NCBI GenBank assembly: GCA_964187785.1
Contig: OZ076409.1
Span: 3,350,001 to 3,414,000, forward strand
Source: Amphiscolops sp. MND2022
Taxonomy: Eukaryota
Length of the DNA stretch: 64,000 bases
Reading direction: 5' to 3'
Below the pieces are notes generated by a model. It ran no database searches. It saw only the letters and a list, made by a program, of their open reading frames with translations, and was not told the DNA's origin. Position 1 is the stretch's first letter; each line of letters starts with the position of its first letter. Positions 13,303 through 61,409 of this stretch are shown one piece after another. A program made the translations under genes and the position numbers.

Positions 13303-15009
13303 TTCTCAAAACATACCAACTGCTAACGAAACGCTAATGTTAATATTCCAGCACTATTAATCTAGGAACAACCAAAGTAGGTCAATGTCGATGCTTCAAG
13401 TAGACTTCAAGTGTCGAAAGCATAGACGCATTTCCGTTCCAAGGACAAAAGTAGAACAAATCCGCAAAAAAATCAAATGGACACTTGCCCGCTTCAGGTT
13501 CAAAAAGCTCAAGAAGTCTCAAATATGCTCAAAACGACATCTCATACATTTCAGAGATGCAAAAAAATCAGAAAGGGTGCCCTGTGGCCTCGAAAAACGC
13601 GTTTCTGTCACTGAAATCAACCAAAAACACCAAAATTCGATGGGGAAAACCCTTTTTCGGTTGAAAAAACTTTTCCCCGAAAAAGTCGCACAATGCCGAA
13701 AACTTCGAAGGAACCCTTTAGGCTCTGACAACTTTTCCGAAGTTAAATCAGTGGAAAACCGAAGGGGGGCTCTTTGGTGAATTAAAAGTTTTCGAAAAAA
13801 GTCGCACTTTTTCGGCACTATGAGACTGTTTCAAAATTCTCATTTTTCGTCTGAAATTAGGTTTTCTCAATATGTACTCACAAATATATTTTTTTCAATA
13901 CTCGATATAGCGCCGACTTGTTTTTCCAAGAATAAAATCTTTAGAAATTAGAAAGATTCAAATCTTAAACAATATTTATCAGTTCATTTATATTATTGGC
14001 AGTTTGTAGAAGGAGAAATTACCGCGGATAGCCATCTCGACGTACTCAACTACACACACAGCAAGCTTCAAAACGAACTCACTTCCATTGCGAATTACGA
14101 ACAACTGCTCAACTGTAAAGCGCCCGCCTTTTAAGGCTATGGAATGGGAATTTGTCGTGAATTATGACAATCCCAAGTGGGTGCATATCCCAAGAGTCAA
14201 TTTTTGACCATTTTCAAGAAAATTCGGTGTTTTGCTTTGTAAATCTGTCCTCCACTTGTTGAGGTTTTCAATATTTATATACACGGGCACCGTTACTGAC
14301 ACTGCAAGGAGGTTCTGCAGCTTGCAGCGATTCGACACTATCTCATCTTTCAGTTATTAAATTGCCCCTTTGAACTTTGGGCCATCATTCCCGTTGCAGA
14401 CCAACATAGTTTCGCCTCGCACGGTCCCTTTTTAATTGAGTTTCAACTTATACATATCCAGGCATCATTATCGCTGGCTTCAGTTTGTGGAATAAAGGAT
14501 GAAACAGCCACCTTGCATGGCTAAGTATATGTACATGCTGAACAGCAGAAACTGTTCTTCTTTATAAGCTAGGTTCTTTTCTGTAATCCCCCACCACTTG
14601 TTTTTTCGAAAAAATTTGTGAAAATACTAAAAATAAAAAGACCTAGAACTGAATTAGAAACCTTCACTTTTATATATATTCTCTTAATGACAGTTTAGAA
14701 TTCAGATACAAACTTTGTTCACGCATTTTTCCTTATGAAGTCACGCATTCTTGTTGGAAATTCAATGGCTTCCTGTTTTGAGTCACTAAAAACAGTTAAT
14801 TTTTTACATATTTACAGTCAAAATGTGTGAAAAAGTTTGTTCAAATGAAAAGCTATTCCAATAGAAGTTAACTTCCTGTTATGGGAAAAACTTTACTTCA
14901 AATTCAACCAGTTTGATTTTTTTGTAATTTTCCCTAACAAGCCGGCCCTGAAAAGCCGCAATTTTGGGCTCAATTTAATGAAAACGGGCGACAAAGTCGA
15001 ATAAATTAT

Positions 15010-15210
15010 TTGAAGTATCAGATAACAATGGGAAAAATATCTGAAGAACTTAGTACCCTTGCTGTCACGTTTGAAGAGCTTGCGCCAAGTTCAGCTAGCT
15101 GGAAAAGAATTTTCAGTGCAATGGGATGCATCCAAAATGATCTACGAAATCGACTTGGAATGGAAAAACTTGAAAAACTTACCTTTATAAGAAAGGTGCT
15201 AACTCGTTAA
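15010..15210 (+). pseudogene. hAT transposase C-terminal dimerisation-domain remnant (duplicated at 18219-18419)
   Basis: LAPSSASWKRIFSAMGCIQNDLRNRLGMEKLEKLTFI resembles the hAT motif PSSASxERxFS..LRNRLGxEKxxKL. Confidence 0.75.
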
Positions 15211-15689
15211 TGTTTTTTGTTTAAAACATGTTTATATCGTTTAAAACGTTTTTTTTTGTTGAATTCGTGTTTTTTTTACATCCCTCGTAATAGCAAACCT
15301 CGGGAGACGCTTGCCTACAGTGGCAAGGCAAAAGGGCAGTCATCGAGCGAGACATGGACAAATGACGTGATAGCCTGGCCGGCCGGGCATAGTGGGGGGG
15401 GGGTACGGTTTGGTGGAATGGATGCAAACCAAAGGGTGATAGAGGCACCACACATCTTCATCATAATATTTCATATTAGTGCCAAAATGCGTTGTGGCGG
15501 CGGCCGCACGGGACTACTGGAAAAACAGAGGAAAGCTCTCGAGAAAAGAAGCATCATGCAATTCAAAACAAGCACGCGAGGAGGAGCATGGAAACACATG
15601 GGCGGCCGCCTCTTTGCTCAAGTTTATATGGGCCGTATAATCTGCTGTGAAGTATAACATCCATCGAAAATATACACGTACTATCTACA

Positions 15690-16208
15690 TAAAATATTGC
15701 AACCTCATTGCTTAAAACAGCAAAATTCAGAACCAAATATCTCGTAAACTGTCACGAATACAAACATTTGCCAGCTAGGAAAGTTTCTGAGAATTTTATC
15801 TAGTTTACAAAAATGTTTGTTTGAAATTTCTGCGACCCTTTTACTGAAAGGGTTAGAAAATGCAAATTTTAGAAAATTTTAATTGAAATTAGAGTTTTTT
15901 CGAAAATTGAGTAGCTTAGAATTAAATTTTCGGATTTTTTTCATTTGGATATTCTTTTTCCAAAAATACTTTTTCAACTTGAAAATCAAGAAAAATGGCA
16001 AATTTTATGAAATTTTGTCAACATTTACAATTTCTAACTTTGGTATTTTCGTCGCAGAAATTTCAAACAAACATTTTTGTAAACTGGATAAAATTCTAAG
16101 AAACTTTCCTAGCTGACAATTTTCCGTATTTGTGACAGTTTTCGAGATATTTGGATTTGAAATTTGTAATTTTAAGCAAAGGATTTGCGATGTTTTAGAA
16201 CGCTACTG
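15690..16208. mobile_element. Long-TIR foldback MITE, left end truncated (duplicate near 18893-19410)
   Basis: Long inverted arms; right end AGAACGCTACTG+TA; same family as 23573-24119. Confidence 0.8.
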
Positions 16209-19200
16209 TATGCTGCGACTGTGGCCTGATTTCTCCAAGCAACTTACGACAGAGGTGGTGACTACCATTCTTTGTGGACTACTGGTCTACTACACTAAAA
16301 ACTACTGCACGTCTTGAGGTAGCGACACTAGATTGAGGAAAAATAATAAAAGCAGGGCTCACATAAGCACCGCATGTAATGACAGAACAAGACGGGAACG
16401 TCTGAAGTCGGCGCTATATCTAAGGCTCAAAAAGCGCAAAGTTTTCACAATTGTAAAAGGGGGACCCTTTGGTCTTGTCCGGTTTCGTAGGTTACTTCTC
16501 AAAACATACCAACTGCTAACGAAACGCTAATGCTAATATTCCAGCACTATTAATCTAGGAACAACCAAAGTAGGTCAATGTCGATGCTTCAAGTAGACTT
16601 CAAGTGTCGAAAGCATAGACGCATTTCCGTTCCAAGGACAAAAGTAGAACAAATCCGCAAAAAAATCAAATGGACACTTGCCCGCTTCAGGTTCAAAAAG
16701 CTCAAGAAGTCTCAAATATGCTCAAAACGACTTCAAGCAAAGTCTCATACATTTCAGAGATGCAAAAAAATCAGAAAGGGTGCCCTGTGGCCTCGAAAAA
16801 CGCGTTTCTGTCACTGAAATCAACCAAAAACACCAAAATTCGATGGGGAAAACCCTTTTTCGGTTGAAAAAACTTTTCCCCGAAAAAGTCGCACAATGCC
16901 GAAAACTTCGAAGGAACCCTTTAGGCTCTGACAACTTTTCCGAAGTTAAATCAGTGGAAAACCGAAGGGGGGCTCTTTGGTGAATTAAAAGTTTTCGAAA
17001 AAAGTCGCACTTTTTCGGCACTATGAGACTGTTTCAAAATTCTCATTTTTCGTCTGAAATTAGGTTTTCTCAATATGTACTCACAAATATATTTTTTTCA
17101 ATACTCGATATAGCGCCGACTTGTTTTTCCAAGAATAAAATCTTTAGAAATTAGAAAGATTCAAATCTTAAACAATATTTATCAGTTCATTTATATTATT
17201 GGCAGTTTGTAGAAGGAGAAATTACCGCGGATAGCCATCTCGACGTACTCAACTACACACACAGCAAGCTTCAAAACGAACTCACTTCCATTGCGAATTA
17301 CGAACAACTGCTCAACTGTAAAGCGCCCGCCTTTTAAGGCTATGGAATGGGAATTTGTCGTGAATTATGACAATCCCAAGTGGGTGCATATCCCAAGAGT
17401 CAATTTTTGACCATTTTCAAGAAAATTCGGTGTTTTGCTTTGTAAATCTGTCCTCCACTTGTTGAGGTTTTCAATATTTATATACACGGGGACCGTTACT
17501 GACACTGCAAGGAGGTTCTGCAGCTTGCAGCGATTCGACACTATCTCATCTTTCAGTTATTAAATTGCCCCTTTGAACTTTGGGCCATCATTCCCGTTGC
17601 AGACCAACATAGTTTCGCCTCGCACGGTCCCTTTTTAATTGAGTTTCAACTTATACATATCCAGGCATCATTATCGCTGGCTTCAGTTTGTGGAATAAAG
17701 GATGAAACAGCCACCTTGCATGGCTAAGTATATGTACATGCTGAACAGCAGAAACTGTTCTTCTTTATAAGCTAGGTTCTTTTCTGTAATCCCCCACCAC
17801 TTGTTTTTTCGAAAAAAATTTGTGAAAATACTAAAAATAAAAAGACCTAGAACTGAATTAGAAACCTTCACTTTTATATATATTCTCTTAATGACAGTTT
17901 AGAATTCAGATACAAACTTTGTTCACGCATTTTTCCTTATGAAGTCACGCATTCTTGTTGAAAATTCAATGGCTTCCTGTTTTGAGTCACTAAAAACAGT
18001 TAATTTTTTACATATTTACAGTCAAAATGTGTGAAAAAGTTTGTTCAAATGAAAAGCTGTTCCAATAGAAGTTAACTTCCTGTTATGGGAAAAACTTTAC
18101 TTCAAATTCAACCAGTTTGAATTTTTTTTTGTAATTTTCCCTCAAACAAGCCGGCCCTGAAAAGCCGCAATTTTGGGCTCAATTTAATGAAAACGGGCGA
18201 CAAAGTCGAATAAATTATTTGAAGTATCAGATAACAATGGGAAAAATATCTGAAGAACTTAGTACCCTTGCTGTCACGTTTGAAGAGCTTGCGCCAAGTT
18301 CAGCTAGCTGGAAAAGAATTTTCAGTGCAATGGGATGCATCCAAAATGATCTACGAAATCGACTTGGAATGGAAAAACTTGAAAAACTTACCTTTATAAG
18401 AAAGGTGCTAACTCGTTAATGTTTTTTGTTTAAAACATGTTTAAATCGTTTAAAACGTTTTTTTTTGTTGAATTCGTGTTTTTTTTACATCCCTCGTAAT
18501 AGCAAACCTCGGGAGACGCTTGCCTACAGTGGCAAGGCAAAAGGGCAGTCATCGAGCGAGACATGGACAAATGACGTGATAGCCTGGCCGGCCGGGCATA
18601 GTGGGGGGGGGTACGGTTTGGTGGAATGGATGCAAACCAAAGGGTGATAGAGGCACCACACATCTTCATCATAATATTTCATATTACTGCCAAAATGCGT
18701 TGTGGCGGCGGCCGCACGGGACTACTGGAAAAACAGAGGAAAGCTCTCGAGAAAAGAAGCATCATGCAATTCAAAACAAGCACGCGAGGAGGAGCATGGA
18801 AACACATGGGCGGCCGCCTCTTTGCTCAAGTTTATATGGGCCGTATAATCTGCTGTGAAGCATAACATCGAAAATATACACGTACTATCTACATAAAATA
18901 TTGCAACCTCATTGCTTAAAACAGCAAAATTCAGAACCAAATATCTCGTAAACTGTCACGAATACAAACATTTGCCAGCTAGGAAAGTTTGAGAATTTTA
19001 TCTAGTTTACAAAAATGTTTGTTTGAAATTTCTGCGACCCTTTTACTGAAAGGGTTAGAAAATGCAAATTTTAGAAAATTTTAATTGAAATTAGAGTTTT
19101 TTCGAAAATTGAGTAGCTTAGAATTAAATTTTCGGATTTTTTTCATTTGGATATTCTTTTTCCAAAAATACTTTTTCAACTTGAAAATCAAGAAAAATGG

Positions 19201-19588
19201 CAAATTTTATGAAATTTTGTCAACATTTACAATTTCTAACTTTGGTATTTTCGTCGCAGAAATTTCAAACAAACATTTTTGTAAACTGGATAAAATTCTA
19301 AGAAACTTTTCTAGCTGACAATTTTCCGTATTTGTGACAGTTTTCGAGATATTTGGATTTGAAATTTGTAATTTTAAGCAAAGGATTTGCGATGTTTTAG
19401 AACGCTACTGTATGCTGCGACTGTGGCCTGATTTCTCCAAGCAACTTACGACAGAGGTGGTGACTACCATTCTTTGTGGACTACTGGTCTGGTACACTAA
19501 AAACTACTGTACGTCTTGAGGTAGCGACAATAGATTGAGGAAAAATAATAAAAGCAGGGCTCACATAAGCACCGCATGTAATGACAGA

Positions 19589-38595: not shown

Positions 38596-39189
38596 TGTCG
38601 TGTTTCTCGCAGATCAAGACGCTTTTCTATAAAAGCTAGTAATCACTAGATGGCAAATATCAAAGCACATATCAAAGGGACATCGGCATCAAAATTAAAA
38701 CATATGTCAATTACAGCAAAATACATTAAAGTCATTAATCAGTATACACATCATCCCCCTTCCAAGAGGTCTCATGGCTACAGTCGTTGAATCTTGGGTT
38801 CGGTTTCCTGACTCGTGCAGACCTCCTAATCGGCCCTCGGGAGTAGTAGAAGACATTACAATCAGAAACAAGTCTCCACTAGTAACGCATGTCGAAATTT
38901 GTTCCGCCACTCCCGTGGTCGTAGTACACTCTGTAGTTGATCTAGCCGTCACTAGATCAAGGGCAACGAAAATTGGACAGGCAAAGGGAGCAATTTGGCT
39001 TGTAGTCGCTAGAATTGTTCTCTCGGACCCGTCTGAAACTTCCTTAGTGAGCCATGCTGTATTATTGCCTTTCCTAACAACATACATTGCAGGAAAAGAT
39101 GCAGCGTCAGGTCAAGCACGAAAAACTACACGCTCTCCGATGGGATAATTGATGACAGCAGGGAGTCGCATTTTCCTTCCAAGCAGAAC

Positions 39190-40780
39190 TTATGAGGGAG
39201 TCTTCCCTCTCACGGAAGAAGTGTTAGGGTGTGTGAACAGGACTCGCTGCAGAAATGCATGGAAACTGACACGAAGAGACAAGTTCCATGCCCTCATTGC
39301 TTTCTTTACAGTCTGAACAGCCCGTTCGGCATGTCCATTACTCCTTGGATTGTCGATTGGACTCTCTAATTTGGTGCAACGTTGCGCCTGTAACCACGTG
39401 ACAACTTTGTCGTTGATAAAATCTTTTGCATTGTCGGAAACTAAAGTGTGCGCGACCCCAAATCTCCCAAAAGTTGCGGACAGACAATGTATGACTTTTT
39501 CCGTGGACCAATCGCCGCACATAAACGCTTCTATCCAACCTGAACCAACGTCGACAATAATAAGAAAGTTGCCTACTTCTTGGATATAAGCCCAATCTAT
39601 GTGTAGTCTCTCCCATGGTTGCAACTGGTCAATTCTCGATCGATTGCTCAGTTCGTAGTCGGACTTTTGCACATTCAGAGCAGGCACTAAATAATTTTTC
39701 AACATCTTTTCCGACCCCAGGCCACCAAGACAATGGGTTCACATTGTTCTTAGTCGCCTGCACACCAGGATGCGTGTCATGGACTCGTTCAATTACGATG
39801 TTCCGCATTCTTGGTGGAATGTAAGGTATAGTTCCGTTGTATAGCAGTACCTTCTCGACTGTGAGGAAACCAGATAATTTCTTGAAAATACTCTCCACTT
39901 GAGTCCATGCTTTCCAATCGCCATCGATTACACGCCTGATAATCCGCTTCGCCAATTCATCGCGTTCACATTCACTCCTCAACTCTTCGAATGGAATGAG
40001 TTTAAGCTCGGCAAAATGAACACAGAATTCATCAAGATTAGAACTTGAGTAGTCGACTAGATTGCACTCGTCGTCATCCTTATCGAACTTCAGTCTACTC
40101 ATGGCGTCAGCATGAGGAATCGAGGAACCTTCTTTGTATTTAATCTCATAATCAAATGCCATAAGCGAAAATGCCCATCTGGTGATTCTTGCTGATAGGG
40201 GTTTTGGGAGTTCCTTGTTTGTAGCAAATATGAGTTCCAGGGGACGATGATCAGTTTCGAGGTTGAATTTCTGGCTAAGTAAAAACTGCTTCAAGCGTTT
40301 TACCACAAAGACAATCGCTTGGTGTTCACGCTCAATGTTAGAGTATCTTTGCTCAGCTTGAGACAATGTCTTCGAAACATAGATTACAGGGTGCCCCTCT
40401 TGAGATAAGACTCCGCCAATAGCTTTCTCAGACACATCAGTTGTGATCGTTACTTCCTTTTTCAGAGAATAGGGCTGAACAACAGGTTTCGATGCTAGCT
40501 CAGACTTCAACCTTTCGAATGCACGTTGACATTTGTCGGTCCACTGGAACTCAGCCTCCGACTTCTTCCTCAGATCAGATAATGGGGCAAATTTCGACGT
40601 GAAGTTTGAGATTAACCGGCCGTAGAAGTTGACCAATACACAAAATTGTTCGACTTCCTTAACACTTTGAAGAGGACGCATTTTCCTGATTTTTTTGACA
40701 AGGCGATCATCGGGCTCAATCCCGCTACCTGAAATTGTGAAACCGGGAAAAGTGATTTTCTCCCAGACATTTTCAGACTT
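39190..40780 (-). pseudogene. pol: Gypsy pol remnant: RT C-terminus, RNase H, integrase
   Basis: TTDVSEKAIGGVLSQ, YSNIERE, ETDHRPL, PHADAMSR (RNase H); HDTHPG..CSEC; WERLHIDWA..LVSDNA..PRSNGHAERAVQTVK (integrase); frameshifted. Confidence 0.9.
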
Positions 40781-40799
40781 GTAACACCTTGTAAGCTTG

Positions 40800-41259
40800 A
40801 GATCGACGAACTTACAATAACGCGCAGCTTCTCGGAGCCTAGCAAGGTTGTCGGTTTCTGCTTGTTCTCTCCTCCCTCTTGAGACATCTGAAGGAAGCCA
40901 ATGCGTTCTGCAACCACCACTCTCTCTTGTGGCTTCAAAAAACTTATGAGATCCTTACGAATGTCTATGAATTTCACGTCTTCAATGTTTCTGGGCGCGA
41001 CGAGGCTACTGAGCTTTATCAACGCTTCGAGGCCGCATTGGCTCATGAAGAGATCAGTCACCTGATAATCATTTGCTATGGCAGCGATAGCTTGCGGTCC
41101 ACTAGTTCCGGGTGTTGCGTCGATGTCCCTTTTCTTTTCAACCCGCGCTCGCGCCTCGAACGCCTTCAGCCACATCAGTGCTTGATCGGGTTCCTTGAGG
41201 TTCAATTCCGGTTTACCCAATGATTTTGGTGATGACTTGGAAAAACACGATTCGAACAA
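40800..41259 (-). pseudogene. gag: Gypsy gag N-terminal part
   Basis: WLKAFEARAR..LFMSQCGLEALIKLSSLVAPRNI..LKPQERVVVAERIGFLQMSQ is typical of Mag-type gag; truncated by a deletion. Confidence 0.75.
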
Positions 41260-41389
41260 TTTGAGACTTGAAGGCTAAGAATTACTAACGGGGCTTTGAG
41301 TCCAAGACTCTAGAAGCTCACCTTTAATTCGAAAAGCTTTAAAGAGGTAACAACAGCAGCTCTGAGTCCGAGATTCTAAAAGCTCACCT

Positions 41390-41983
41390 TTAGTTGTTTG
41401 CTCTTTTTCTCTTAGCCTCTCTTCGTTGCGCGTGAGTTCTTCGCTTGGTGCCTCTTGTTTTCAAGATCTTCGTCAGGTTCGGATAATAATGTAGGACTAC
41501 ACCTAGGGATCTGAGTTCGAGATCGCTGGATTGATGTAAGGCTTTGTATTTCTCGACGAGTACTTCACTGCGCTGTACTGACTTGCTCAAAATATCTGTC
41601 GTGACTTGGATGATTGGGCAGTCCAATGTTCTCAGGTCTTCAAAGATAATCGGGGATCCTGTACGTTGTCAAAAAACTAAGCCGCAAAAGTTTGTGAGAC
41701 TTCTCAGTGAAGCCACAAGCTGATATACACTTTGCAGTTGATGTTTATTACTTTTGTGGGGTGTGATAGTTTTGTTAATCAGATCGTGCCACAGGATTAT
41801 TCTCGTATTTTTCAGTTTTTCGGACTTTAGATAGTTGTAAACGTCGTTTGAATTGTTCACGGTGTCTGGGTTGAGGCTGAAACTGGGACGGGCGTGGACA
41901 AGTTCCCGTAGTTGTTTACGCAAACTGATATGAAGTTCTTCAATTGAGTTGAAAAAAGAACTGGCAGCAATAATTTTAAACAT
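41390..41983 (-). pseudogene. Extra 197-codon ORF between PBS and gag with one premature TGA; possible SGNH-like fold
   Basis: ORFs 41669-41983 and 41390-41626 are in the same frame, separated only by TGA (..GLVF*QRTGSPIIFEDLRTLDCPII..); ATG lies about 20 nt after the PBS. Confidence 0.65.
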
Positions 41984-42098
41984 GATAACCTTGAAATGTA
42001 TCCTGGTCTGGACACCAATTGTCGTGTTTCTCGCAGATCAAGACGCCTCTTGGTAAAAGCTAGTATTCACTGGACGACAAATATCAAAGCACATATCA

Positions 42099-43312
42099 AT
42101 TAAGTATGTTGATCCCATTACACGTCAAACCTTTGAATATGCAGATCAAATCCCTTGCGAAAATATCCCACAAAATGTTATTTCTCTTCCCCCAGACACT
42201 GATCAATATTATGTTTTAACTCCTCAACCTCTTAAAAAAGACCCTCCTTTACTTTACGAACCTACCCAAGTACAAACCAATATTAGCCCTAACACTTTTA
42301 CTGCTCAAGATGCTGGTATTTATTCTCAAAAGGAACTCAAACACTTTTGGAATTGTGTATTATTCACTAAACACTCTGATAAAACTCTTCAGCTCCTAAT
42401 TAAAGCTATTAGCTACGAACTTATGAATCAACAATCCTCTGGATCTCTTTCCGACAATCCCTATATGTCTCTTCGAATTGGTTTTTATGACTATATGTTG
42501 AACTCAACCCAATTTTTCTCTCCTGATTGGTTCACCGATGCTTTTATTAAACTTTTTGGTTTTCCTTGTTATATTTTAACTCAATGTGGATAATATTTTT
42601 CTACTGGTCTCTTCTTACAAATTGCGTTCAACACACTTATTAGTATTTATCGTTCGTTTACTGTCAGAAATCTACTCAAGAAACAAATCTCTGTAATATC
42701 CGCACTTGGATTTGTTTTTTTGGAACCATCACTCAAACTACGATGACTGCTATGGTTAAATTGTCTAATTCACATTCAGATTCTGAAGATTCTGATTCTC
42801 CTCAACCTCCACCTTCTATTTCCCATACCAAATCTTCAAACCCCAAGCCCAAATCTCCTAATTATCAACCGAATACTAAAACGAAACTCCTTAGTTCAAA
42901 AAATAAAAATCTCATGCATAGATCTCCGCCTACTAAACCTTTCTCTTCTTCCATTTCTCAATCTCACCCTAGTAGTAACACTCCTCCTGTCAATGAAAAT
43001 TGTTCACCTCCACCTCCTAGTTATAATTTACATTTTACTCCTCATAATAATTTCTCTCCTCGTCACTCCCAATCACCTCCATTATCTTCCCCTCCACATT
43101 TCCATAATTCCCCTCTTCCTGATGATACTAATTGTGACAATTCCTCTAATGATTCCCCCATACACAATATATGGCAATCAACAAAAATTTATCCTCCTAC
43201 TCCATCACCAATTAAAACTAATGACATTCCGTTAACATCTGTCAATAGTATATTGGATCAACCTGAAAGCCCTGTCAAAACCTATTCCTCTTGTCGTTTC
43301 CCTCTTGAATAA
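42099..43312 (+). pseudogene. Envelope glycoprotein C-terminal fragment resembling chuvirus-type / gB-like class III env of LTR retroelements
   Basis: The frame from 42105 reads YVDPITRQTFEYADQIPC..YYVLTPQP..PPLLYEP..TAQDAGIYSQKELKHFWNCVLF, then hydrophobic segments. One TAA at 42591 and a frameshift in the T-run near 42720 lead into a Ser/Pro-rich tail. Confidence 0.65.
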
Positions 43313-43844
43313 TAAATAATGATAATAATTTCGTTAGTTTTAAAATTTTCTCTTCTGAATATTAATAACTTATCTCTTATGAATATTAATCATTTCACTC
43401 CGATTCATTTTTCATCGTTCTTGCTTCTCGCTTGGAAACTCTTTCTCGATTTTTAAACACCCAAAACATCTCCATTTTTCTCGAACTATTTTTACACTTT
43501 TTTTCAATTTCAAATAATCTTTTCTTCACTAAAACGCACTATATTATAATCCTCACCTTCATAATTTTCAATTTCCAACATTTTGTATCTTTTTATCCTA
43601 TAATCCAAATGGCAACCTCTAATCCTGACGAAGAACTTCTTTATCACCGCCTCTTTCCCTCAAATCTGGATTTCTTGATCTACCAAATATAACTGATTCA
43701 CTCCCTCTTGATTTTAATCCTACACCTGAACCAACTTTAAATGTTATCCCCTCCACTACTGGCACAAATACGTACAAATAGCAGTCATGAATTACAATAC
43801 GACCTATCATGAAACAAGAGGCTGCGAACCATCCACGGTAAGTG

Positions 43845-44330
43845 ATAGAAGAATCCCTTACAATGTCCTTGACTTAAAATTGCGCTAAAATGGAAAATCA
43901 TGCCCTACTCCGATTTTGCAGAGCAACTACAAAAACAAATTAACAAAGTGCGCGCGACAGCAATAGACAACATTATGCTGTCGTATTTCAAATACAAGAA
44001 ATATTACAACGGCAAAGCGTCTGCAGCCCTGCTCAGGGTAAACGACTACTGCTATATCCTCAACCCGACAGCAGACAATCAATCGGCAAATTTCAAATTT
44101 CAAGACCGCATTTGAACGGGACCGTACATAGTTATAAAAGTACTGACAAAAAACAATTATACGATCAGGAAAATCTGTTAAAGTTACACGCAAACCTTGC
44201 ACAGAATCCGAATACGTTCTTTTGTCCTTATGTGACAGCACAACGCATGCCTGACGTCACAGTCAGGTCAAATGAATGTTTACCAGGCCTAGACGTCAAA
44301 GTATCACACAATGAAGGATACGCTGTGTCC
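43845..44330 (+). pseudogene. Gypsy integrase C-terminal (GPY/F) remnant
   Basis: RIPYNVLDLKL..YFKYKKYYNGKASAALLRVNDYCYILNP..*TGPYIVIKVLTKNNYTIRK..QTLHRIRIR. Confidence 0.75.
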
Positions 44331-46644: not shown

Positions 46645-47569
46645 TAACTATGACATGACAGAGGCAATTGACACGAGGCAAGACTATCCACAATTCCTGA
46701 GAGACCGGCCAACTCAGAAAACGCTGACCAGAAGATTCCACTCGTACACAAACCAAAAACAGCTCATGATTGTCCCATGTATGAACGATAAAAATTTTCG
46801 CCGTGCCCTCGTTGACAAAGAGACACTATAATTCCGGAATGCAGCGAATCGGGTGAAAAATGACAGCAACACGCGAGGGAATAATGATCGGCACACTAAC
46901 AACTAAAACGGAAGCCATCAAGTAAACCCAGTCATAAAAGATTACATCACATAACTATGACATGACAGAGGCAATTGACACGAGGCAAGACTATCCACAA
47001 TTCCTGAGAGACCGGCCAACTCAGAAAACGCTGACCAGAAGCTTCCACTCGTACACAAACCAAAAACAGCTCATGATTGTCCCATGTATGAACGATAAAA
47101 ATTTTCGCCGTGCCCTCGTTGACAAAGAGACACTATAATTCCGGAATGCAGCGAATCGGTTGAAAAATGACAGCAACACGCGAGGGAATAATGATCGGCA
47201 CACTAACAACTAAAACGGAAGCCATCAAGTAAACCCAGTCATAAAAGATTACATCACATAACTATGACATGACAGAGGCAATTGACACGAGGCAAGACTA
47301 TCCACAATTCCTGAGAGACCGGCCAACTCAGAAAACGCTGACCAGAAGCTTCCACTCGTACACAAACCAAAAACAGCTCATGATTGTCCCATGTATGAAC
47401 GATAAAAATTTTCGCCGTGCCCTCGTTGACAAAGAGACACTATAATTCCGGAATGCAGCGAATCGGGTGAAAAATGACAGCAACACGCGAGGGAATAATG
47501 ATCGGCACACTAACAACTAAAACGGAAGCCATCAAGTAAACCCAGTCATAAAAGATTACATCACATAAC
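46645..47569. repeat. Tandem triplication of a 307-bp unit
   Basis: TAACTATGACATGACAGAGG starts at 46645, 46952 and 47259; units differ at very few positions; TAAC recurs at 47566. Confidence 0.97.
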
Positions 47570-55789: not shown

Positions 55790-57316
55790 TTACGAATCAT
55801 TTACCGACGATGAATCTGTTTTTGCTCGAATGATTTCTTTCCTGGCCTCCTCTTCGAGGTATTGGTCCTCGGATATTTTTTTCGTTTCATCTTTGAGTTG
55901 GTTAACCACTGTTTCGAACCTCTCCAATGATGCCAATAAAGCTTCGTAGTTTTTGACATTGGTCGGGTTCCATCTCACAGCGTATGTCCCGAATAGAATT
56001 TCTGACTTCAGAACAATTTCAGCTTCGAGTCTCAGGGTATGAATTGCATCCAACTGATCAGAATGCTCATTCAACATTTTCTTTCTAACTTCATCACTGC
56101 GTTTTTGAAGTTCTTCGAAAGTATCTGATACTTGCTGTCTCAGGCAGATAAGCCGCTCAATAGTTGCCGTTTGCAATCCTTCTTTATAATTTTTAACAAA
56201 AACTGTAATGTCAATCTTTTTCGTTTGAAAATCAGGATGCCATTTTATGTTGGAATCGTCCCAAAGGCTTTCTGATTGACTCAACAGTATTTTGTCTTCA
56301 TCAATCAATTTTCTGATGCGGGCATTAATTGTGTTCTTTGGTGCTTTCTTTTCTTCTTCCATCTGCTGACTGTAAAGTGCTTTCAATTTCTGCACGGCAG
56401 CTCCCATTCTCTCATAACTTCTGGACCAGCAAACGTTCCACTCTGTAGCTTCCATTGCGAAAAACAAAGATTTCATTAGTTGACATTGGAATGGTTGAAG
56501 GTTATCGAATTCCAGGCAAGATGAATTTAATTGTTCAATTCGAAATTCTCTCCAGTCTGTTGGTGATACCTTCAAACACATTAACGAAAAATTAGTCAAA
56601 ATTTTGGCGGCTTCTTTCTTCAGTTCGAAAACCTGATCTACACTATTGCTTCGCATTGACAACAAGTGCTGCTCTGTAAGGCTGTTGAAACTATAAAAGT
56701 AAAGGTCCATTGATGCGAGCAATTCACCTACTCTGAAGAGAGCATCAGCTTTCAGTTTCCACTTTCTCCAGCTAATATCACTGGCAATTCTTTTCGAAAA
56801 AAATCTTTTGTTGATGAGATCGATGGTGGTGATTGAGCCGTTTTTAGACTCCGATAAAACAAACGTTAACAGTGACAATAACATCATCACGCGATCGTTC
56901 TTGACTAAAAGGTGATGAGTTTTGAAAGGATTCCCACGTTTTTCGGAGAAGTTTTCAATCAGCAAGTAAGTGGCACTGTAAAATACGTCTTGCAATGTGC
57001 ATGATATATTTTCAGGTGTTATCCAAATGTCTCTGATGCCAAAATTTCGAAATGTTTCAAGGCTTGAAATTTCAGTCACATCTGCAACGTGAAGGAATCT
57101 TCCTTTTTCACCGAAGTACTCGGAGACTCCTTCAATATCAGACAACTCTCTTCCTTCATATTTTCGTTTTTGGAACGAGGCCAGAGAGTGTTCAAATCCA
57201 ACGAATAAAACAGACGGTCTTTCCTCCACTGGACCGTGTGTACGTAAAAAAGTCACGAAAGTTGAAGTGTACCACTCATCTATCACCCTAGTTGAGTGTG
57301 CTCGAAAGTTTTTCAC
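55790..57316 (-). CDS. Large exon-like ORF with a TPR-like helical region and coiled coil; probably part of a host gene
   Basis: 508 uninterrupted codons in otherwise decayed DNA. WKLKADALFRVGELLASMDLY..AAKILTNFSLMCLK..AMEATEWNVCWSRSYERMGAAVQKL follows TPR consensus spacing. Candidate acceptor TTAG near 57326 and donor GTAAGG near 55793. Confidence 0.65.
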   Translation of the reverse strand: MKNFRAHSTRVIDEWYTSTFVTFLRTHGPVEERPSVLFVGFEHSLASFQKRKYEGRELSDIEGVSEYFGEKGRFLHVADVTEISSLETFRNFGIRDIWITPENISCTLQDVFYSATYLLIENFSEKRGNPFKTHHLLVKNDRVMMLLSLLTFVLSESKNGSITTIDLINKRFFSKRIASDISWRKWKLKADALFRVGELLASMDLYFYSFNSLTEQHLLSMRSNSVDQVFELKKEAAKILTNFSLMCLKVSPTDWREFRIEQLNSSCLEFDNLQPFQCQLMKSLFFAMEATEWNVCWSRSYERMGAAVQKLKALYSQQMEEEKKAPKNTINARIRKLIDEDKILLSQSESLWDDSNIKWHPDFQTKKIDITVFVKNYKEGLQTATIERLICLRQQVSDTFEELQKRSDEVRKKMLNEHSDQLDAIHTLRLEAEIVLKSEILFGTYAVRWNPTNVKNYEALLASLERFETVVNQLKDETKKISEDQYLEEEARKEIIRAKTDSSSVNDS

Positions 57317-58802
57317 TTTTATAGGCTAATTTACTAGATTTTCGGGAGCTGCATGCTGAGTATTTTCATGCTGCGTCACCAATTAGTCAAGTATTCGTTA
57401 GGATTTCTCTATAATTCGGCGAATTTTTAGAGTAACATCAACGAAACACATAACAACTCTTCGAGCAAAGTTGTAAGTTTTCGTGGGCAAGGCCCCGAAC
57501 TTTGTAAGCACAGACGCTACAACATGACGTAAACAAATGACGTAAAACTGAACTTTTTGATAGATTTTGTTTTTTTTTCATTCTTGCAAACGGTTAAAAA
57601 ACGCAATATTGGTAACATTCCGGGTTTGGAAAAACAAACACAATTTCATATCAATGTTCTTCACTGTTTTTCAGTGAGAGCGGAATATCGAAAACAGCAG
57701 TTTTGATTGGTTGAAATTTTGATTATTTTCAAACTTTTTTCAGCCACAGATCCGTAAAACATCTGAAATACTGTAAAAAAATCTAGCATAGGTTTTTGTG
57801 AGCATTTTTATTTGAATTGCTGACGAATTATCAAATTTCAGTCATTTTTGATGAAAAACAACAACATAATTTTTGAAAAATGCGAATCCAATGAATCTCC
57901 ATTACAAAATAGTCAAAATATTCAAATTTTATCCAGAAAATCAGTTTTTTTTTCGTTTTGGTCGTACGTATCTGAGACCCTGATAGTCGCGACGACCAAA
58001 AGTAGCATCATTCGATTAAATCTTACCCTCGTTATTTATACAACTTCTTTCAGTCCAAAGCGATACGAAATAGACAGATAGGGGGGCGGTAATAACTCTT
58101 CAGGAATTACGCAAATAAAAAACCCAAAAGTGGAAAAAAAACGACTAAAATCAAGACTTGATCGCTCGCTTTATTAAAACATTGAATTGTTGACGGTATT
58201 CGGTACACGTTGTTGGCGCTATTAGTTGGGAGGGGGAATGAGATCTACAATTTATCAGTTTCAGATCTTATTTCCTTTTTTTTTTACTTCAGTTCGTATT
58301 TTTCAGGGAATAAGATCTAAAAATGACAGAGTTTAGATCTTATTCCATTTAGATCATATTCCAGCCCTGAAAGCTTATTCGTTCCCATTCGTACTATTTC
58401 ACTCGGTCCCTAGCGATACGAACTAGGCGGATTCAACTGTATAGGGCTTTCCACCAAAAGTTTTGACGTTGTTTTACGTTATTTCCTATTTGCTAGGCAT
58501 TTTTCCCGAAACACCTTTCAGGCGGTAAAACAAGATAGTACCTAAAGGAATAAGATCTAAACCAATCCAATCACTCGAATTGACATGATAGAGGAAGGTC
58601 AATCTTACAGTTTAGACGCTATTCTTTGTGCCCGTTTCAGACGTTATTTTTGGTTCCGTTTAGATTGTACTATCTTGCCTCTCATACAATTAATACTAAC
58701 TTTACTATCTTTGACGAACGTCGTCGAAAAGAAGATCATAGATTAGAGATACTCACAACTTACGACTCAAGTTTTCAAGTTTGAAGACACAGGTGACTCT
58801 CA

Positions 58803-59490: not shown

Positions 59491-60031
59491 TGAAGTCAAT
59501 CCTTGACATAAAATTCCGTGACTTATTACACTCAAATTTAGGTCTTTACCTCATCCATTAATAACAACAACCTCAACCCTTTTTGTCAGTGATGTCCCTC
59601 CTTTTAAATTTTTACACGGTTCTAAATCTTTCTTAATACCCTCACTTATCTAAAATACACCGCACAAGTTTCTCGAAGGTTCCTTTCAATTGTGATTTTT
59701 CTTTCAAAATCTTTTTTTTACCTTTCTCGATTTCTGGTCGAACTACGTGAATGAAAACCTAGTTCTTCAGGACATATGCTGTCAGAGAAGTCTTTTCCCT
59801 GCGATAAGATACGTTTTAGAGTTTTTGATCTGCAATTTAGAGAATAGTGATTGGAACATGTTTTCGTTTCAGGGTCTTGTTTTCAAGGCGCATGCAATTT
59901 GTTGCAATATTTTTCAAGATGCGGGGAAGTTTTATTAGTTTTCACAACATGCAGGAAATTTTTTACATAATTTTCCATGCAGGGTCCCTGATGTTTCTAA
60001 AGTTTATCAAAAATAATCCCTGCGTGCATAC

Positions 60032-60914
60032 CTGCGCATAAAAAGTTTTCATGCAATCTCAACTTGGGTAGGCAGCACTCTAGGACATTATTTTTTGGGT
60101 CTTCGTTCATCTCGCAGCAATCCAATAGTTGCAAATCGCTCACTATAATTGTCAAATTAGTGGAAGCTCTTGTGACGGCAGTAAAAAAGAGACTTGCGAA
60201 AATACGATAGAAGTCTGCTAGATGCATGTAGCTGATTACAATAACAACTGCGCCAAACTCAATGCCCTCGATCTCTGTAGGGTTGTATGAAACAATGGTG
60301 GTTCCATGATTCCTTGGTTGGTGGTTCATGTATTCAGTTCTGCTGATGCATGGTTGATTTGGAAACATTATTCTGAAAGTAGAAAACAGCATATCTTGAA
60401 GCGCATTACTCATGAAGCAAATAACAGGAAAAACTCCGTGATCTCCTAATTTCTCTGCCGTGTGTTTGATTAAAGTTACACATTTAGCAGTGAAATGGGG
60501 ATATTCCAAAACCTCCATGCCACATTTTTGGATGATTTGAATATCAACTCTTTCGCCTTCAAAATTGTGGGCAGGATGGCAATCGAACTCCACGCTGCTC
60601 TCACTCCAATGTTTCCACCTTGTTGCGAAACGAGAAATTGCACCTGTCGATCGAAGGGATGCGCTTAAATGAATGATTTCAAACTGGGGTATTTCCACGC
60701 AAGAAACAGTGGATGTGAAAAGTATAATATTTTGATCTGCGTTTAGGCTATCCAGAATCAAGTTAGGATTCTGTCCCTGATTGAGAAATTCGTCGCAGAG
60801 AACGACAGTTGCTGGTGTTTCTTGCTGCTTAAATTCACTAAACCATTCACGGTATCTCTTTTCATTATAGAAGACTTCGAACTCCGAATAAGCTGAAACA
60901 GTGAGTCTGTTGAA
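60032..60914 (-). CDS. Exon encoding an SF1/UvrD-like (Schlafen-type) helicase region from Walker B to motif VI
   Basis: VVLCDEF (Walker B), LSASLRSTGAISRFA, EIEGIEFGAVVIV (motif V), FFTAVTRASTNLTII (motif VI). Acceptor CTAAT..CCTTCCAG at 60915 (alternative AG at 60893); donor CAG|GTATGC at 60031. Confidence 0.72.
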
Positions 60915-61409
60915 CTGGAAGGTTGGTGAAATTAGAAAAAAAAACATTCTGAAAATTTCAGAATCAACGGCTCATTCGATCCATGCCATGCTCAAGACTT
61001 CAATCAGGTCACAATCAGGTCAGAATGAAAATACTATTTCATGTATATGATCTCTGTGTTGAAAATCAAAAAACTATTTACATGGATGAAGAAACCAATA
61101 AGGCTTCTTCCCTAGTCACAGCAATCATCCACACTAACAGACGTTTATTCAACAGATTCAAGCCTCATATTCAAGTTCGGATAACGTTTAATACATCTTC
61201 CGGAATCAATCAAAAACAACTTTCATTTTAACATCCATATGTCCCATTTCAATATGAAAATGAAAATTTCTACTGAACCATGCGTTTTCGAATATTTGCC
61301 ATAATCCAAGCCAAGGTGCTAGTCAAATTGTAGGACGTGCAATACTTTTTAGAGTTTCACAAAAAGAGTTTTGTTTTAAAAGTTTCCTTTTGTTTTCGAT
61401 TATGAGGGG

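Follow-up and report, generated by a model that had tools for sequence, protein, structure and literature searches.

A fossil of a giant, envelope-bearing Ty3/Gypsy lineage in the genome of Amphiscolops, with a candidate CUG-started frame before env

An envelope-like coding fragment lying among pieces of LTR retroelements raises the questions of what protein it once encoded, which element carried it, and whether that element is still represented by intact copies. The window examined here is a stretch of 64,000 nucleotides from contig OZ076409.1 of Amphiscolops sp. MND2022 (GCA_964187785.1, positions 3,350,001 to 3,414,000 of the forward strand), and coordinates are counted from its first letter. 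A preliminary description of the window, made from the letters alone, proposed a class III, chuvirus-glycoprotein-like env surrounded by Gypsy-type elements, and raised the possibility of an independent env capture.

The env relic and its neighbours

The long frame that had been described from position 42105 is present within a stop-to-stop frame of 178 aa at 42057-42593, which reads YVDPITRQT... from 42105, and homology to env begins at about 42104. This frame matches the Pfam family PF24664 Monjiviricetes_fusion (E 2e-7, 29.8 bits against a curated cut-off of 27), and a natural, intact relative of 918 aa shares 86% identity with the relic over 205 aa. The previously described stop, frameshift and Ser/Pro tail were also recovered: a TAA at 42591-42593 interrupts the env frame, and a change of frame at about 42716-42722 leads into the tail, which ends at 43312. 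The relic covers the 3' 400 codons of env, and the 5' 516 codons are absent within the 64-kb window. Past env come a spacer and the first ~50 codons of a downstream gene, ORF4 (ATG at 43609, to about 43760). The features of the locus are as follows.

38596..42099, minus strand: unrelated Gypsy element (gag-like, RNase H, integrase), not the env carrier; LTR remnants at 42020-42099 and 38596-38756
42104..43312, plus strand: 3' part of env, a pseudogene with one stop and one frame change, approximately residues 517-918; end of the ectodomain, membrane-proximal and membrane region, Ser/Pro-rich tail
43313..43608, plus strand: env-ORF4 spacer, up to 84% nucleotide match with other copies
43609..43760, plus strand: accessory ORF4, truncated 5' fragment; 42 residues match intact ORF4 at 71% aa, and there is a nucleotide match as well
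43760..44226, plus strand: C-terminal end of an integrase from another Gypsy family, directly next to the relic and likewise not the env carrier; 59% and 40% at the aa level with neighbours that lack env, at L036 and L043
59507..59671, plus strand: second, separate relic of the env-carrier family, ORF2 3' end, 16 kb from the env piece

The neighbours had been called Gypsy-type, which holds for both flanks, but neither of them is the env carrier. The left element has a pol only ~25% identical to that of the env-bearing lineage and constitutes a separate repeat family (41 matches); its LTR is cut at 42099, so the junction with the relic is a deletion or recombination scar. Since the flanking pieces belong to other elements, their adjacency is no evidence for the identity of the carrier. 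Elsewhere in the window, a 511-aa frame at 55793-57325 (minus strand) is without a Pfam match, and a 324-aa frame at 60000-60971 (minus strand) has a weak UvrD_C_2 helicase C-terminal match (E 7e-4, below the cut-off); the two may form a single host or transposon gene. The window also contains a 307-bp triplication at 46645-47569 and a 3.2-kb tandem duplication at 13303-19412.

Within the family, the window copy falls into an older subfamily, with 84-88% nucleotide identity to its nearest relatives and 77-79% to young copies. Those nearest relatives (L146 and L147) also have gag-RT-RH-IN-ORF2 upstream and keep the CTG block described below. The locus is thus a dead 1.65-kb fossil of a young, abundant and giant Gypsy lineage with a gB-type env, and no intact element is present there.

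The carrier lineage

A search of the animal's own genome (1.07 Gb) with env gave 150 scored matches among 6896 candidates, many of them with open frames of 920-950 aa. Ten copies were sampled from the top matches with long frames. All ten are bounded by an LTR pair (320-346 bp, one of ~375 bp), have gag-pol upstream of env on the same strand, and are flanked by 4-bp target duplications; they measure 17.9-19.0 kb. The two LTRs are free of mismatches in six of the ten and differ at no more than four positions in the remainder, which shows recent transposition of the carrier family, although drawing the sample from top matches with long frames overstates the proportion of young copies. Envelope-bearing LTR elements, many of them young, are therefore present in this genome as had been proposed, and intact env copies lie between LTRs downstream of a Gypsy pol in every copy sampled. 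Two element copies were seen to sit within long satellite arrays.

The described layout, 18.8 kb long, is LTR - gag-pol (one frame) - ORF2 - env - ORF4 - ORF5 - LTR. This family, family 1, has at least 195 copies in the genome, and three sister families (RT 72-78%, env ~55%; at least 50, at least 50 and at least 63 matches) share its layout over 17.7-20.0 kb, with LTR pairs found in five of six cases. The LTRs start with TG, and those of family 1 end in TA rather than CA. The primer site, TGGTCGCACCA, matches the 3' ends of host tRNA-Met(CAT) and tRNA-Val. Five more distant env families, A to E (env 27-29%, RT 42-43%), are also Gypsy and have the primer site in common. Families B to E measure 17.1-19.6 kb with LTRs of 0.5-2.2 kb (6/6), and family A measures 12.2 kb, one copy being without most of gag-pol. 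The 4-5 kb pol-env gap of families B, C and D contains conserved small frames in which a Trp/Cys-rich unit recurs, and in B and C the gap also has long stretches free of ATG (950 and 1166 nt).

The carrier of env is a Ty3/Gypsy element, not BEL/Pao. Its gag-pol is a single frame of 2254 aa with the order PR-RT-RH-IN after gag, on which nine Pfam families were matched, none of them a BEL/Pao domain. The domains, by residue, are PF03732 at 139-209, a DSG motif at 589, RVT_1 at 1031-1154, RT_RNaseH at 1217-1349, H2C2 and rve at 1685-1849, and SH3_Tf2-1 at 2013-2040. Among 12 solved-structure matches for RT-RH the best was Ty3 (E 1e-36), followed by CaMV (6e-26), foamy (1e-18) and MLV-type (1e-9). 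In the gag-pol of one copy (L035), residues ~730-830, in the protease-RT interval, resemble a degenerate dUTPase when judged by eye, and an insert of ~300 aa lies between RNase H and integrase (residues ~1375-1680). Troyka elements differ in having LTRs that end in CG and 3-bp duplications, as against the TG-start LTRs and 4-bp duplications found here (PMC12440569).

In a tree of 15 RTs, all from this genome, those of the 12 env-bearing elements separate from the 3 env-less ones with support of 100/100. The env tree groups families 1-4 as the RT tree does, but in it the distant families are interspersed with unnamed proteins from outside this genome, and it is therefore compatible with one capture as well as with several. 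The suggestion of an independent env capture gained no support, because gB-type env on Ty3/Gypsy elements is reported to be widespread and probably ancient (Chary and Hayashi, PMC13524379); moreover, all the env-bearing RTs sampled here group together.

All four frames 3' of pol are under purifying selection, as judged by dN/dS between subfamilies. ORF4 (~495 aa) is full length in 12 of 20 copies, has a dN/dS of 0.06-0.07 and is conserved in four families. ORF5 (~305 aa; full length in 11 of 20, dN/dS 0.22-0.31) was not detected in the three sister families, and sister families 2 and 3 (L111, L116) have a different conserved frame in its place (62% over 153 aa). No Pfam family was matched by ORF2, ORF4 or ORF5, no solved structure by ORF2 or ORF4, and no Atlas entry by ORF4; the homologues found for the three frames are all unnamed proteins. 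Conserved antisense exons 3' of ORF4 were not evident across families.

A Met-free frame between pol and env

The gap of ~1.7 kb between pol and env contains ORF2, a frame of 450-480 codons without an ATG. In an alignment of nine copies, out-of-frame indels upstream give way to a block of 19 invariant nt around TCCATC-CTG-GA and to codon-patterned conservation downstream, the conservation beginning at the CTG. All 20 copies examined contain the block, and in 15 of them it opens a frame of 444-446 codons. Genome-wide, a 25-nt motif had 195 matches with CTG against none with CTA, CTC, CTT or TTA, the four synonymous codons, out of five, that the search covered. A Leu codon two codons further on varies, unlike the CTG itself. 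The CTG has A at -3 and G at +4, a Kozak context conserved in four families, and in the three sister families AxxCTGGA likewise heads a Met-free ORF2, the proteins being 34-38% identical. Across the four families there is not one Met in 391-446 codons of ORF2, and dN/dS between subfamilies is 0.09-0.12. No stimulatory hairpin was found after the CUG (0/5).

Depletion of ATG extends to all frames. Before env, family 1 has 0-1 ATG against 6.5-8.2 expected (20 copies), and the sister families have 2, 3 and 2 against 8.2, 11.5 and 8.4; the ATGs in the sisters are all out of frame and open 1-17 codons. Controls on env, ORF4, ORF5 and pol gave no such depletion. A codon-resampling control that preserves the ORF2 protein gave a weaker signal, with P of 0.27 (F1a), 0.0006 (F1b), 0.012, 0.047 and 0.040, that is, below 0.05 in four of five related, and hence not independent, sets. 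These patterns suggest that ORF2 likely begins at CUG, which would let ribosomes pass on to env. The most distinctive feature of the lineage is this conserved, AUG-depleted ORF before env with its predicted CUG start.

We consider it probable that the lineage is a giant Ty3/Gypsy element with gag-pol, a predicted fusogen env and three accessory frames, in which one mRNA would serve both ORF2 and env, through initiation at CUG and leaky scanning. This RNA would be subgenomic, arising by splicing or from an internal promoter, and would start after pol. A minority of ribosomes would initiate at the CUG, helped by A at -3 and G at +4, and make an ORF2 protein of ~445 aa, while the others would scan ~1.2-1.3 kb to the env AUG. 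From the sequence patterns we infer that CUG initiation and leaky scanning take place on such a subgenomic RNA. In family 1, AUGs are present between the pol stop and the CUG, so the position of the RNA 5' end, or reinitiation, matters.

Classical errantiviruses express env from its own spliced RNA. ORF2 could accordingly be a 3' exon of a spliced gene, or be reached by readthrough or frameshift from pol, with env on its own spliced RNA and the CTG block acting as an RNA or DNA signal. A pyrimidine tract and an invariant TCTAG follow the pol stop in family 1, the only family with a candidate 3' splice site (GTCTAGAC), and the codon-preserving control was non-significant in one of the five cases. 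However, the invariant CTG block contains no AG, and the pol-ORF2 gap carries out-of-frame indels and varies in length among families. In four families CTG-GA, preceded by A at -3, is where conservation starts, an acceptor-like site just before env was absent from all five copies inspected, and splicing would leave the complete lack of Met and the depletion of AUG unexplained. We regard expression by splicing or readthrough as unlikely.

Initiation at CUG followed by scanning to env would have a counterpart in rice tungro bacilliform virus, in which a non-AUG (AUU) start of the first ORF and leaky scanning across ORFs I-III were shown by experiment, and in the badnaviruses; there scanning crosses ~900 nt free of AUG, and short internal uORFs are tolerated (PMC5902531). 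That virus is a plant pararetrovirus that uses AUU and scans to an MP-CP-RT polyprotein, whereas the present case would be an animal LTR element that uses CUG and scans to env (PMC5902531). A YxLR motif is conserved in ORF2 of the four families and also occurs at the pol C-terminus of three. It resembles the nucleosome anchor of foamy virus Gag, whose chromatin-binding sequence includes Y537 and R540; this is a likeness of a four-residue motif only and may serve as a lead (PMC12125541).

The envelope protein and its relatives

The env protein is of the class III chuvirus/gB type and is a predicted membrane fusogen, in keeping with the preliminary assignment and with the PF24664 match of the relic. 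When env was compared with solved structures by sequence and by profile, no meaningful match emerged. Structural models of intact relatives, in contrast, resemble chuvirus G and herpes gB. The natural env ectodomain, modelled as a monomer from an alignment of 89 diverse rows, reached a pLDDT of 77.7; an earlier model from 50 close relatives had a pLDDT of 38.7, and its top 8 Foldseek matches were chu/xinmo-type glycoproteins. The better model matched chuvirus-, xinmovirus- and qinvirus-like glycoproteins in Foldseek with E down to 7e-26, and herpes gB with E 3e-11, the global env-gB fit being loose (TM 0.24-0.44). With VIA, the whole model aligned to gB over 426 residues (Z 11.7, rmsd 16.6), and gB domain IV alone over 157 of 173 residues (Z 9.0, rmsd 3.4 A). 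The Atlas comparison agreed with a class III gB-like assignment, at low recognition.

The env has an N-terminal hydrophobic segment or signal peptide, a membrane segment at the C-terminus, which exceeds the hydropathy threshold in two of three cases, and 14 Cys with matching spacing in the ectodomains of three families. Such an Env could let particles exit one cell and fuse into another, possibly passing from soma to germline by analogy with Drosophila errantiviruses. Alternatively, Env may be kept for a role other than infection, such as receptor interference or cell-cell fusion that aids spread, with replication being intracellular only. The absence of a furin-like site from all 10 envs scanned would fit such a role, but gB-type env does not always have a conserved furin site (PMC13524379), and the ectodomain has a dN/dS of only 0.03-0.04 between subfamilies. 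The signal peptide, conserved Cys and membrane anchor are retained, as is env itself in all ten families sampled, and a role without infection seems to us quite improbable. That env is a piece of an endogenous chuvirus, the env of a BEL/Pao element like Anakin, or a domesticated gene of the host is hardly credible even with chuvirus-like glycoproteins as its closest structural matches and the window env standing without its own pol, and for the family as a whole this is ruled out by the Gypsy gag-pol domains, free of BEL/Pao domains, and by the LTR-bounded Gypsy setting of all ten sampled copies among the 150 scored matches of 6896 candidates. In the Ser/Pro tail of env, PPxY or LPxY late-domain-like motifs were observed in families 1-4 and were absent in A-E; the tail of the window copy reads PPPPSY.

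Extended to all the families, the same reading would describe an infectious, complex Gypsy radiation (17-20 kb, gB env, several conserved accessory genes without a known family), four families of which would have a CUG-started protein, bearing YxLR as a chromatin anchor like that of foamy viruses, co-translated with Env by leaky scanning as in pararetroviruses; we offer this tentatively, as possible rather than probable.

Several parts of this picture have precedents. The errantiviruses with gB-type env described by Chary and Hayashi have a Ty3/Gypsy pol, the order gag-pol-env, an env signal peptide and anchor, and many near-identical copies, as here; the present elements differ in the ~1.7-kb gap that holds ORF2, in their size of ~19 kb and in the ORFs after env (PMC13524379). 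That screen dropped regions above 10 kb and, outside insects, pol-env gaps above 1 kb; a word search of the main text found no mention of splicing, accessory genes or leaky scanning, and our primer site is absent from its element table (PMC13524379). The Anakin elements of mosquitoes have the same env family, a chuvirus glycoprotein, inside LTRs, but the carrier is BEL/Pao there and Ty3/Gypsy here (PMC7642597). Neither large Gypsy elements nor additional ORFs close to env are new in themselves, and foamy-like fish ERVs of up to 17 kb and Burro, a giant Gypsy of planarians, resemble the present elements in reaching a large size through accessory coding and in env homology (PMC6431247). In Burro, env lies between gag and pol within a single giant polyprotein, whereas here the ORFs are separate, env stands alone and the LTRs are short (PMC6431247). 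Our literature search, with subscription journals, Repbase and bioRxiv supplements outside its scope, found no CUG-started gene of an LTR retrotransposon and no giant env-bearing Gypsy with accessory ORFs. A gB-type env on Gypsy is thus already known, and the ~19-kb size, the accessory genes and the putatively CUG-started ORF2 were not found in print.

Because these elements exceed the published size and gap filters, they suggest a missed class of large, accessory-gene-rich errantiviruses. Hundreds of young copies from several families in one genome allow a direct reading of dN/dS and of the conservation of start codons. The lineage bears on whether env-bearing Gypsy elements outside insects are infectious and on how their env is expressed, and it provides an animal retroelement in which initiation at CUG and leaky scanning over a long range could be put to the test. 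If true, leaky scanning over more than 1 kb would be a translation strategy undescribed for LTR retrotransposons within the literature searched.
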